The position numbers and the translations under genes were made by a program. This document shows, piece by piece, positions 3,036 through 5,066 of a DNA stretch of 64,000 nt (positions are counted from its first letter, which is position 1; each line of letters opens with the position of its first letter). Source of the stretch: Escherichia phage vB_EcoP_DE5; the sequence record MW741821.1; one strand, written 5' to 3'. The notes under the pieces are model-generated. The model made no database searches. It was not told where the DNA came from and was given only the letters and a program-made list of their open reading frames with translations.

Positions 3036-5066
3036 TTAACCTCTATTCAATGAACATTTAGGAGAATTACAATAAACTTGATTCATAGAACCAAGCGTAC
3101 AACTTTCAGCATCGCGCCACGGAATCTGCTTAAAACACTCTGAGCAGTAGCCGAGGGTTGACCACATGGCTTTGGTGAAGTCAGTGCTTCTGTTTCCGTC
3201 GAAGCTGACGACAGTTTTGCGGAGAGTTGTTCGTGATTCAGGAAACACACCTGCTTTCTCAGCAGGTTCCTCCTTTTTTGGCTTAGTTGAGATTGCAAAA
3301 ATACTGTTGCCACGTTTCTCAACATAAGCATCAACAACATCTTCCAGAGTGATACCTGTCTGTTTCGCTGAGGAAGGTAATACAGTCATACGACCAATCA
3401 TATCCTCAGTTACACGTACAGCAATTTCAGGACGACGGGTATTTGTTGTATCTGTTGCTTTAATCCAGACATAACCATCTTTGATCGTAGCATTAGACAC
3501 TTTCTTCTTTACATCTACAGCGCAGACTTTACAGATATCTTCACCACGAAGACGGCTGAGTTCCTCATCGAACTCATTCTCTGTTTTAACTTCACCGCAG
3601 ATTTCACAAACACCAATAGGAGTTTCCTCCTCTTCTTCATCTTTAGGTTTAGTCAAACCTTCCAGACATTCAGGGTGCCAGTAGCACTGATATGCGAAGA
3701 CTGCTTTAGGTGCATCCTTCCAATCAATGTGTTTGTCACAACCACCGCAATCACCATGAGAGTGTGCTTCCCAGAATTTACGAGTGATAGTAACGCCATT
3801 CTTATTGACGAAACTATCATTCATGTCAAAAGGGATATCATCATCGAAGTCAGCAGTAGTAGACTCAGGCTCCTTTTTCTCCAGAGATGGGTCAACAAAA
3901 CGACCTGCTGTGATCACTAAACGAACCATAGCATTAACTTCGGAGATACAGGATACTGTCCCACGGTAAACGATCTTAGGGTCTTTCAGTGCGTCCTGAT
4001 AAGCCTTAATGTCTACGTTATGAACATCACCTTCGATGTACTCTTGAGACTTCTCATCGTAGATATAACCAATCATCTTACCACGAGAAGGAACAGCACC
4101 AGCAGTTGCATAAGGAACGAACTCATGCGGAGTGATTTCAACAGTCATATCACGACGGATATCAATATTTCGATCGCTTGCGATTTTGTTTTGACTTACC
4201 ACTGCGTTTCTTCGACGAACGTCTGCCGCTGTCACACCCGGCTTCGTGTCGTAAGGATTGCTTGTACTGCTTTTTGAGGAACTTTGATAGTTGCTTTGGC
4301 TGTAATTGTTCGAGTAGTAATTGCCCCAACGATTGACTACCGTAAAAACCGGAAGCTCGTGGGCGACCTCTTCAACCAGTGTCATGCTGTTATTAGACAT
4401 GTCAAAGATATACTCTGTACCAACTTTACATTCAAAATGCTCATCAATACGGTTCTTGTGAGACTTCGAACGCTTCAGAATCCACATCAGCATATCTTCT
4501 TCAGAAGCACCAAACCAATCTCTGTTACAACGTGCGAGATGGAAAGGACGCTCTTCGTTACGAATGATATGAAGGCGGTTATCAGAAGCATCATGCCAGA
4601 TTAATGTGAAAGCACCATCCAGCTTTTGAATAGTCTCTGCTGCACCAATAGTGTTAATAGAGTGGCAGATGTTCTCACTGTCTACCTCGAAGTTTTTGCT
4701 GTCAGGTAACAGATCTTGGTCCATCAAGGTTCCGTTATGAACCAGAGTGATGTTACCATGTTGGAAAGGATGGGCGTTCTTGGCGTTAACTGCACCTTTC
4801 GTTGCATGACGACTGTGACCAACAATCCATGAAGGTGCTACAGTGTAAGCTGTTTCACCAGTGGTGTGCTTCTTGTACTCATCTTGTAGGATGAATGCGA
4901 AAGAAGGAAGAGCTTCTTTATAAGTGAAGACTTCCTTGGTGCTTTTACGCTGACCAAAGATACCGGAGGAATGTTGTCCTCGGAATACTCCAGCGTAAAA
5001 GAGTTGGTTGAATACGTCTAAATCAGTGCTTGACAGATTACCGCCAGCTAATACGATGCCACAAAT
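3036..5066 (-). CDS. class II (Ntn-type) glutamine amidotransferase fused to a Cys-rich zinc-ribbon-like C-terminal region (about 676 aa)
   Basis: Own translation upstream of the ORF-track start gives in-frame CGIVLAGG...SRHATKGAVNAKNAHPF...VHNGTL, a GATase-II signature with N-terminal nucleophile Cys. The Cys codon is preceded by ATT, and AGGTGGA sits 7 nt upstream of that ATT. C-terminal CxxC pairs (HGDCGGCD, CEICGE, CKVCA, CSECF, CNSPKC). ORF track starts at internal TTG 4727. Confidence 0.6.
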   Translation of the reverse strand: MCGIVLAGGNLSSTDLDVFNQLFYAGVFRGQHSSGIFGQRKSTKEVFTYKEALPSFAFILQDEYKKHTTGETAYTVAPSWIVGHSRHATKGAVNAKNAHPFQHGNITLVHNGTLMDQDLLPDSKNFEVDSENICHSINTIGAAETIQKLDGAFTLIWHDASDNRLHIIRNEERPFHLARCNRDWFGASEEDMLMWILKRSKSHKNRIDEHFECKVGTEYIFDMSNNSMTLVEEVAHELPVFTVVNRWGNYYSNNYSQSNYQSSSKSSTSNPYDTKPGVTAADVRRRNAVVSQNKIASDRNIDIRRDMTVEITPHEFVPYATAGAVPSRGKMIGYIYDEKSQEYIEGDVHNVDIKAYQDALKDPKIVYRGTVSCISEVNAMVRLVITAGRFVDPSLEKKEPESTTADFDDDIPFDMNDSFVNKNGVTITRKFWEAHSHGDCGGCDKHIDWKDAPKAVFAYQCYWHPECLEGLTKPKDEEEEETPIGVCEICGEVKTENEFDEELSRLRGEDICKVCAVDVKKKVSNATIKDGYVWIKATDTTNTRRPEIAVRVTEDMIGRMTVLPSSAKQTGITLEDVVDAYVEKRGNSIFAISTKPKKEEPAEKAGVFPESRTTLRKTVVSFDGNRSTDFTKAMWSTLGYCSECFKQIPWRDAESCTLGSMNQVYCNSPKCSLNRG

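Follow-up and report, generated by a model that had tools for sequence, protein, structure and literature searches.

A class II glutamine amidotransferase with an unrecognised modular tail in the conserved ligase operon of phiEco32-like phages

The 64,000-nucleotide stretch of Escherichia phage vB_EcoP_DE5 analysed here (sequence record MW741821.1; hereafter, the window) comes from a phiEco32-like podovirus of the genus Kuravirus: the region is 97% identical in DNA sequence to about 70 phages of that genus from Escherichia and Shigella, among them ES17, ShigP1 and Bas90, and ten further phages share 60–80% DNA identity with the region. From position 1 to about 23 kb all genes lie on the minus strand and constitute the early and middle genes. 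One of them, at 3036–5066 (minus strand, 676 codons, 2031 nt), encodes a protein in which a class II glutamine amidotransferase head is joined to a long tail, and this protein is the subject of our analysis. The gene is known and has been annotated since the sequencing of phiEco32; the modular anatomy of its tail, a family-specific zinc module and a peptide identical to the tip of Escherichia coli SSB, the protein that binds single-stranded DNA, appear undescribed, as we found no mention of the tail domain anatomy or of the SSB-tip peptide in the accessible literature. A preliminary description of this DNA had located the fusion at 3036–4350. The motifs on which it relied do lie there, but those coordinates cover only the 3′ part of a single minus-strand gene. 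Every motif that it quoted (HGDCGGCD...CYWHPEC, CEICGE...CKVCA and CSECF...CNSPKC) is present in the translation of the minus strand from 3036 to 5147, and its size estimate of 250 plus 420 residues comes near to the head of about 235 and the tail of about 440 residues found here.

The 5′ end of the gene deserves attention, since the start codon is non-canonical. An ATT (5064–5066) stands immediately 5′ of the TGT codon (5061–5063) of the cysteine from which all residues are numbered here, Cys1, and a Shine-Dalgarno sequence, AGGTGGA (5074–5080), can be read 7 nt 5′ of it. An in-frame TAG occurs at 5070–5072, two codons upstream of the ATT, and the frame is open downstream, where it reads K-I-C-G-I-V-L-A-G-G, a canonical N-terminus of class II amidotransferases. 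Because no ATG, GTG or TTG occurs between the TAG and codon 114, that is, within the first 113 codons, the program-made list of open reading frames gives a product of only 563 aa, starting from a TTG at 4727. Given that an N-terminal nucleophile (Ntn) amidotransferase requires cysteine as its first residue, the ATT is to be taken as the start and the gene as comprising 676 codons. The annotation of phage Bas90 contains the same 2031-nt coding sequence with the same ATT start. In the RefSeq record of phage ES17 the coding sequence is shortened to 1689 nt, several other records have it shortened or lack it, and the proteins of several metagenomic relatives begin mid-domain. A distant relative with about 21% tail identity (locus L005) reads AAA-ATT-TGC at 9932–9934, and there too the gene caller shortened the protein; among other relatives one starts with TTG and two with ATG, yielding proteins that begin M-C-G. 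The ATT start is thus the reason why gene callers shorten or skip the gene.

The name under which the gene is filed is a second source of confusion. Many phage records (H4, H20, H24, H31, H38 and others), as well as the PHROGs family phrog_4736, carry the label ‘L-glutamine-D-fructose-6-phosphate aminotransferase’, the enzyme GlmS, and one record reads ‘purF’. The GlmS assignment was rejected, as the protein scores 35.8 bits against the 418 demanded by the NCBIfam glmS model and 42 against 381 for PRK00331, with alignments confined to aa 1–196, and to aa 1–193 in the case of PRK00331; Pfam detects no SIS domain in the protein, and a PRTase domain is absent too. A fusion of the PurF or AsnB type was discarded likewise, the scores being 25 bits versus 350 for purF and 21 versus 267 for asn_synth, over the N-terminal part only. 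The GlmS and purF labels are accordingly mistakes that have been passed from record to record. Many database entries lose 113 codons or the whole gene owing to the ATT start, and many say GlmS; both errors are correctable.

The presence of a class II amidotransferase head, as proposed in the preliminary description, is borne out. The domain spans aa 1–235 (4359–5063, minus strand) and is matched by Pfam GATase_6 with 55.1 bits against a cutoff of 27 (1e-14) and by GATase_7 with 27.4 bits against a cutoff of 25, both over aa 75–192, with GATase_4 matching as well. Matches of the profile to PDB sequences are restricted to the head, and phmmer of the head against the PDB returned nothing, so that the family profile was needed. 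When this profile was aligned with GlmS (1xff) and PurF (8w7d), Cys1, R28-G29, R85/T88, N110-G111 and D128 fell at the nucleophile, oxyanion-hole and glutamine-binding positions, the GlmS counterparts being R73, T76, N98, G99 and D123. These key residues are invariant in the 13 homologues of our closer alignment, which reaches down to 38% identity. In common with GlmS, PurF, AsnB and GltS, the head has the Cys1 nucleophile, the R-G..S-G loop, the GH.R.AT.G glutamine-binding loop, the HNG oxyanion hole and the DSE motif, and judging from these motifs it should be catalytically competent. Those enzymes, in contrast, carry a synthase fused in cis (a SIS, PRTase, PP-loop ATPase or FMN domain), whereas the phage protein has none and continues into an OB-like barrel and predicted zinc fingers.

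No described family accounts for this continuation. The tail (aa 240–675) gave nothing significant in Pfam, NCBIfam or PADLOC, a profile search against PDB sequences returned sub-threshold LIM matches only, and in PHROGs only its own family, phrog_4736, covers it. The earlier suggestion that the C-terminal region is unrecognised consequently stands for these collections, and neither of the two findings that might have undone it was made: no synthase domain aligns with the tail, and head and tail belong to a single gene throughout, in every one of the metagenomic relatives as in 97 phage records. On the other hand, to call the partner simply a Cys-rich region proved too narrow, as the tail appears to be composed of a helix, an OB-like barrel, an acidic linker with the SSB-tip peptide, a zinc module, a zinc finger, an alpha/beta domain and a second zinc module.

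The tail was found nowhere but on this amidotransferase. A search of 5.8 billion proteins yielded 13 clusters at 90% identity, all full-length and 38–98% identical; twelve of them have a precomputed amidotransferase Pfam domain and the remaining one is an N-terminally shortened form of the same protein. When 1.84 billion representatives were searched exhaustively with a profile, only 22 proteins were retrieved, nearly all of 490–810 aa and with a match beginning at about residue 260–310. GATase_6 heads were present in all four relatives that were scanned, and other sequences show the same N-terminal motifs. Among cultured phages, tblastn located the tail in 97 records, all of them Gordonclarkvirinae of E. 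coli or Shigella, to which a structure search added Cronobacter phage GAP52 and Aeromonas phage LAh_9. As these distribution searches find the tail only on amidotransferase proteins, the fusion is, on the sequences available, an obligate one, and the tail family is rare and apparently restricted to phages.

A structural model of the tail alone was built with AlphaFold2 from an alignment of 33 sequences, in place of a single-sequence run of the full protein that had reached a pLDDT of only 33.5. The tail model has a mean pLDDT of 87.6 with a pTM of 0.37, a combination of high local and low global scores that points to confidently predicted domains on flexible linkers. Fold searches with it were dominated by the barrel, and neither the zinc modules nor the alpha/beta domain were independently matched. 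The head is followed by a low-complexity linker rich in Ser, Asn and Tyr (aa 236–278; 4230–4358, minus strand, as all tail features), poorly conserved and of variable length (alignment columns 250–300). Next comes a conserved basic helix, RRR...QNKIA...RRD (aa 279–304; 4152–4229), modelled with a pLDDT of about 96 (model residues 4–22), in which Q291, N292, A295, R304 and D305 are invariant. The barrel occupies aa 305–393 (3885–4151) and the disordered acidic linker, with a net charge of −7 and a pLDDT of 52–56, aa 394–416 (3816–3884). Beyond the first zinc module lies a second acidic linker, KPKDEEEEET (aa 473–482; 3618–3647), evident from the translation and its charge, and beyond the zinc finger a small alpha/beta domain (aa 530–595; 3279–3476; pLDDT about 90; strands at 256–263, 271–277, 305–308 and 314–317), which the model connects to the last module through a linker at aa 596–613.

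The barrel has five strands, closed in the model, with a helix between strands 3 and 4, as is typical of OB folds. Foldseek against the PDB retrieved almost exclusively nucleic-acid-binding OB folds (archaeal 2k75, human SSB1, RPA, POT1, E. coli SSB and PriB; E values from 2e-3 to 3e-2, probability about 0.99), BFVD returned phage SSB-like and LEF-3 proteins, and S1 and DNA-ligase OB domains appeared among the other matches. A comparison of the barrel with E. coli SSB by hhalign gave a probability of 44% over 15 columns that are topologically non-equivalent, and the family profile has no SSB match in PDB sequences; hence the OB assignment is one at the level of the predicted fold only. The barrel carries conserved aromatic residues. 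Across the 33-sequence alignment Y318 and G328 never vary and E344 and H348 hardly do (≥90%), the latter two approaching the zinc ligands in their conservation, and K329 is invariant in the 13 close homologues. In these, one strand (aa 342–349; about nt 4017–4040, minus strand) is likewise invariant in the pattern Y342-x-E344-x-D346-x-H348-N349, which may form a ligand, metal or catalytic site. The preliminary description had raised nucleic-acid binding as a possible function of the tail. That proposal is weakly supported by the closest folds of the barrel, those of SSB, RPA and S1, but its charge tells against it: the barrel (net charge −4 here) is acidic in 32 of the 33 family members, with a median of −5 compared with +1 for the barrel of E. 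coli SSB, and the tail as a whole has a net charge of −11. The acidity of the tail together with the barrel favours, therefore, protein or cationic partners over nucleic acid.

The cysteine pairs that had first drawn attention to the tail could be assigned to three predicted zinc sites. The first module (aa 417–472; 3648–3815) consists of a hairpin and helix with the pattern ‘G..vT+..W’ followed by a treble-clef CCHC site (C439, C442, H463 and C466). Finger 2 (aa 483–529; 3477–3617) is of the CCCC type (C486, C489, C511 and C514), its second knuckle capping a long helix, and module 3 (aa 614–675; 3039–3224) is again CCCC (C640, C643, C665 and C670) with an extra invariant cysteine, C655. All the proposed ligands and C655 are invariant in the 13 homologues, and four strict CxxC motifs were observed against 0.41 expected in shuffled sequences (P = 6.5e-4), so that, at the sequence level, the pairs are not due to chance. 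One cysteine of the pairs listed earlier, that of ‘QCYWH’ (C460), is not conserved, and His463 provides the third ligand of site 1, which makes this site CCHC. The term zinc-ribbon-like describes the sites less well than treble clef, given that in the model the partner ligands of each CxxC knuckle sit at a helix N-terminus and that one site is CCHC. Ligand conservation and modelled geometry both suggest that zinc would be bound at all three sites.

Two of the three modules are related to each other. A hidden Markov model made from the terminal modules of other family members recognised module 1 with 19.6 bits (3e-8) and module 3 with 45.8 bits, as against 0.4 bits for finger 2; by this measure modules 1 and 3 are homologous, family-specific repeats, to neither of which finger 2 is homologous. 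The pattern of the module (‘G..vT+..W’, CxxC, ‘I.W.DA’, C/HxxC) occurs in none to three copies per relative, most of which end with one. Membership of the LIM, PARP-type, FYVE and zinc-ribbon families was considered and rejected, all scores being below threshold: module 1 reached 16.3 of the 22.9 bits required by Pfam LIM, and E values of 0.005 with paxillin LIM, 0.36 with LMO4 and 0.07 with PARP1. With LIM and PARP-type treble-clef fingers it shares the spacing C-x2-C-x20-H-x2-C, a ‘YWHxxC’ motif and the predicted order of knuckle, hairpin and helix. A LIM domain, however, comprises two contiguous fingers of the form C-x2-C-x16-23-H-x2-C-x2-C-x2-C-x16-21-C-x2-C/H/D, scoring above the Pfam threshold. 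Here the first finger fits that spacing, but there are only PDB LIM matches with E values of 0.005–0.4, the second finger follows after an acidic linker of 19 residues instead of the 2 residues found in LIM, and the ‘T+..W’ hairpin and helix are family-specific.

Within the disordered acidic linker lies the peptide DFDDDIPFD (aa 405–413; 3825–3851, minus strand; ADFDDDIPFD when counted from aa 404), whose first eight residues, DFDDDIPF (aa 405–412), are identical to the last eight of E. coli SSB (...PPMDFDDDIPF, MG1655 ssb translation). D408, D409, P411, F412 and D413 are invariant among the close homologues, and 19 of the 33 family members keep DD[ILV]P[P]F or something near to it, EDIPPF in one member and DDIPE in another. 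The octapeptide is unique in the window, which contains no second DD[IL]PF motif, and phmmer of the 30-residue linker against the PDB found no match. The order of parts is that of a bacterial SSB, namely a barrel, a disordered acidic linker and DFDDDIPF, and SSBs are among the fold matches of the barrel; the phage barrel differs in being acidic and in having no significant sequence homology, and the phage motif is internal. A recent capture of the host ssb gene was rejected, as the barrel has no sequence homology with SSB and the codons of the motif differ from those of ssb at five of eight third positions.

Known SSB-Ct pockets make use of the free carboxylate of the terminal phenylalanine, while in the phage protein F412 is followed by an invariant aspartate and then by 262 further residues. 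This difference bears on the idea that the tail is a host-takeover decoy, which would display the SSB-tip mimic, and perhaps an acidic surface resembling single-stranded DNA (ssDNA), in order to titrate host SSB clients such as ExoI, RecQ, PriA or Ung early in infection. In its favour, the octapeptide equals the host tip, sits in a disordered linker and is partly kept in distant relatives, the gene is an early one, and a phage-encoded SSB with the same tail was not found, since the sole flanking product annotated as DNA-binding, Bas90_0064, is ferritin/Dps-like. Moreover, the C-terminal tip of SSB is a hub that recruits many client proteins (PMC5872125). Nevertheless, in addition to its internal position, the motif is missing from 14 of the 33 relatives, and a decoy would leave both the obligate fusion to an intact enzyme and the conserved operon without explanation, so we regard such a role as very unlikely.

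The operon just mentioned was compared across eight divergent loci (L003, L004, L005, L006, L011, L014, L015 and L016), seven of which include downstream sequence. Directly upstream of the amidotransferase gene, in all eight, is an Amidoligase_2 gene (5146–6249, minus strand; Pfam PF12224, 5e-8) encoding a glutamine-synthetase-like carboxylate-amine ligase, a candidate synthase in trans. It is preceded by the gene of p205, a conserved 205-aa protein (6246–6863, minus strand; phrog_4877; seven of eight loci), and by that of a phiEco32-type, GCS-like COOH-NH2 ligase (6873–7679, minus strand; PF14395, 2e-8; all eight). The order COOH-NH2 ligase, p205, Amidoligase_2 and amidotransferase is thus constant for the three enzymes, the slot of p205 being filled in L006 by an unmatched gene of 216 aa. 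Directly downstream are a small DUF7195 protein (2800–3033, minus strand; PF23825, 4.7e-17), present at six of the seven loci with downstream sequence, and further on a RimK-like ATP-grasp ligase (1399–2592, minus strand; NCBIfam rimK_fam, 8e-8; phrog_2599), present at all seven, and a GGACT/AIG2-like gamma-glutamyl cyclotransferase (278–697, minus strand; PF06094, 3e-17), present at six of the eight. The full module of the window (278–9850, minus strand) reads p398, p323, COOH-NH2 ligase, p205, Amidoligase_2, amidotransferase, DUF7195, p74, ATP-grasp ligase, p82 and GGACT, with p398 and p323 confined to the closer relatives. At L006 the module is compact (GGACT, ligase, p216, ligase, amidotransferase, ATP-grasp), and at L005 a gene for an HNH_3 homing endonuclease (9484–9909) lies between the Amidoligase_2 and amidotransferase genes and splits the otherwise tight operon.

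This gene neighbourhood has been noticed before. Iyer, Abhiman, Burroughs and Aravind reportedly described the phiEco32-type amidoligase neighbourhood in 2009, and the association in question is the same as ours, a type 2 COOH-NH2 ligase, an Amidoligase_2 protein, a class II amidotransferase (GAT-II), an ATP-grasp ligase and an AIG2/GGACT protein in a phiEco32-like phage, all five of which we find at 278–7679. According to a paper that cites their work, they are said to have suggested a modification of the cell wall that blocks superinfection. PADLOC detected no known anti-phage defence system in any protein of the cluster. The protein is expressed, as the amidotransferase of phage SU10 was identified by mass spectrometry in lysate precipitated with polyethylene glycol and is classed as an early gene product; the ATP-grasp ligase, GGACT and gp86, a hypothetical protein of 23 kDa, were identified along with it (PMC4281155).

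Instead of donating ammonia, the head might be a gamma-glutamyl amidase that, like EgtC or PuuD, would act on an amine-bearing intermediate or protein and take off its gamma-glutamyl group, the tail recognising the substrate. The residues that bind the alpha-amino and alpha-carboxyl groups are kept and would suit any gamma-glutamyl-X substrate, the head is weakly matched by EgtC in NCBIfam (2.6e-4) and, in a profile comparison, by 1te5 (E = 0.014), a class II amidotransferase-like protein that stands alone, and the ligases of the operon could produce gamma-glutamyl amides, which GGACT would cleave. Yet such an activity would be redundant with that of GGACT from the same module, GlmS and PurF give better scores than EgtC does, and the reading comes without a known substrate; overall we find it unlikely.

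Other neighbours lend themselves to a nucleic-acid-targeting role, in which the barrel and the zinc fingers would bind ssDNA or RNA, the SSB-tip peptide would recruit the protein to SSB clients at the fork, and the module would modify phage DNA or tRNA with an amino-acid-derived or amide group. In Kuravirus the module stands directly upstream of the genes for the primase/helicase, the exonuclease subunit of the polymerase, a nucleotidyltransferase and dCTP deaminase, and the top folds of the barrel (SSB, RPA, POT1, S1 and DNA-ligase OB domains) as well as the exact octapeptide fit the same picture. Gordonclarkvirinae show a broad and unexplained resistance to restriction (PMC11990801), and in viromes amidoligase and amidotransferase genes to which no function has been assigned co-occur with thymidine-hypermodification genes (PMC8989533). 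Against these points stand the family-wide acidity of the barrel and of the tail, the lack of sequence-level homology with SSB, and the fact that nine cluster proteins searched with Pfam and/or NCBIfam yielded neither 5-HMUDK nor aGPT-Pplase nor any other enzyme known to hypermodify DNA. Besides, no modified base is reported for these phages, and searching the literature on phiEco32-like phages for DNA modification turned up nothing. We therefore consider nucleic-acid targeting a doubtful explanation. Its most specific form, in which the amidotransferase with its OB-like barrel and SSB tip would tether the three-ligase module to ssDNA or SSB clients at the phage fork, and the module would install an amide- or gamma-glutamyl-type modification in DNA or nucleotide precursors that causes the restriction resistance of Gordonclarkvirinae, seems to us quite improbable.

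We tentatively favour, as a possible rather than an established reading, that the tail is a non-catalytic docking array and that the two upstream ligases act as synthases in trans, to which the head supplies ammonia. After removal of the initiator methionine, Cys1 would attack a gamma-amide, either that of glutamine or that of a gamma-glutamyl amide, and the conserved Arg/Thr/Asp triad would grip the glutamyl moiety by its free alpha-amino and alpha-carboxyl groups. As a strongly acidic adaptor, the tail would combine the basic helix, the OB-like barrel and the alpha/beta domain with three structural zinc sites and with flexible acidic linkers, one of them bearing the copy of the host SSB tip. 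The acceptor chemistry would come from the two carboxylate-amine ligases of glutamine-synthetase/GCS type encoded just upstream, enzymes of a class that forms an acyl-phosphate, which is then attacked by ammonia or an amine; most likely, these glutamine-synthetase-like ligases are what provides the missing synthase in trans. The preliminary description had not remarked on them. By keeping the glutaminase on its ligase partners and/or on a macromolecular target, the tail would couple the release of ammonia to ligation, and the module, with its ATP-grasp ligase and gamma-glutamyl cyclotransferase contributing, could build or edit a product containing amide or gamma-glutamyl bonds.

Several features agree with this proposal. 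The number of zinc modules differs from relative to relative, which is easier to reconcile with docking than with catalysis, and the SSB-tip peptide lies in a low-confidence, presumably disordered stretch, as is usual for short linear docking motifs. A two-protein division of labour, with a glutaminase or gamma-glutamyl hydrolase beside a separate ATP-dependent carboxylate-amine ligase, is realised in MurT/GatD, PuuA/PuuD and EgtA/EgtC. The likeness is a functional analogy only, since the glutaminases of these pairs are of other folds or classes (GatD and PuuD belong to class I), none has an OB or zinc-finger tail, and the sequence link to the phage protein is limited to the weak EgtC match.

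Other features weigh against a docking array. It is from gene order alone that we infer the docking in trans, and the transfer of ammonia and any role of the SSB-tip peptide are likewise putative. The conserved polar strand from Y342 to N349, together with K329 and Y318, is a feature more usual in catalytic sites or sites for a specific ligand than in passive adaptors, and the best fold matches of the barrel are nucleic-acid binders. Furthermore, according to the Pfam description of Amidoligase_2, the GAT-II proteins associated with that family are thiol peptidases and not ammonia donors.

The replacement of the synthase domain by a putative docking tail, in an operon that is strictly conserved and encodes three ATP-dependent ligases as well, would indicate a glutamine-dependent pathway. 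This pathway is core to common therapeutic E. coli phages, as it is present in Kuravirus, Suseptimavirus and their relatives. The exact copy of the host SSB tip beside an SSB-like barrel provides a concrete and cheaply testable lead, which might link this orphan operon both with the replication fork and with the resistance to restriction that is so far unexplained in these phages.

Some minor observations concern the surroundings of the module. Between about 22,000 and 24,000 of the window, the GC skew and the coding strand change from the early and middle genes of the minus strand to the late structural genes of the plus strand, in agreement with the genome layout of phiEco32. The ATP-grasp protein of the window has a C-terminal extension of 82 residues (aa 316–397) that matches a separate family, phrog_20552 (3e-58), and looks like an added domain. 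Beside the module, locus L003 carries a PRPP-synthetase-like gene and NAPRTase (500–3021), and L005 a NadR-like CTP_transf/AAA_28 gene, two NUDIX genes, a PnuC-like transporter of nicotinamide mononucleotide, RtcB and an RNA ligase (13951–20506), a NAD-related set that resembles the NAD-reconstitution and tRNA-repair genes used by phages in counter-defence.

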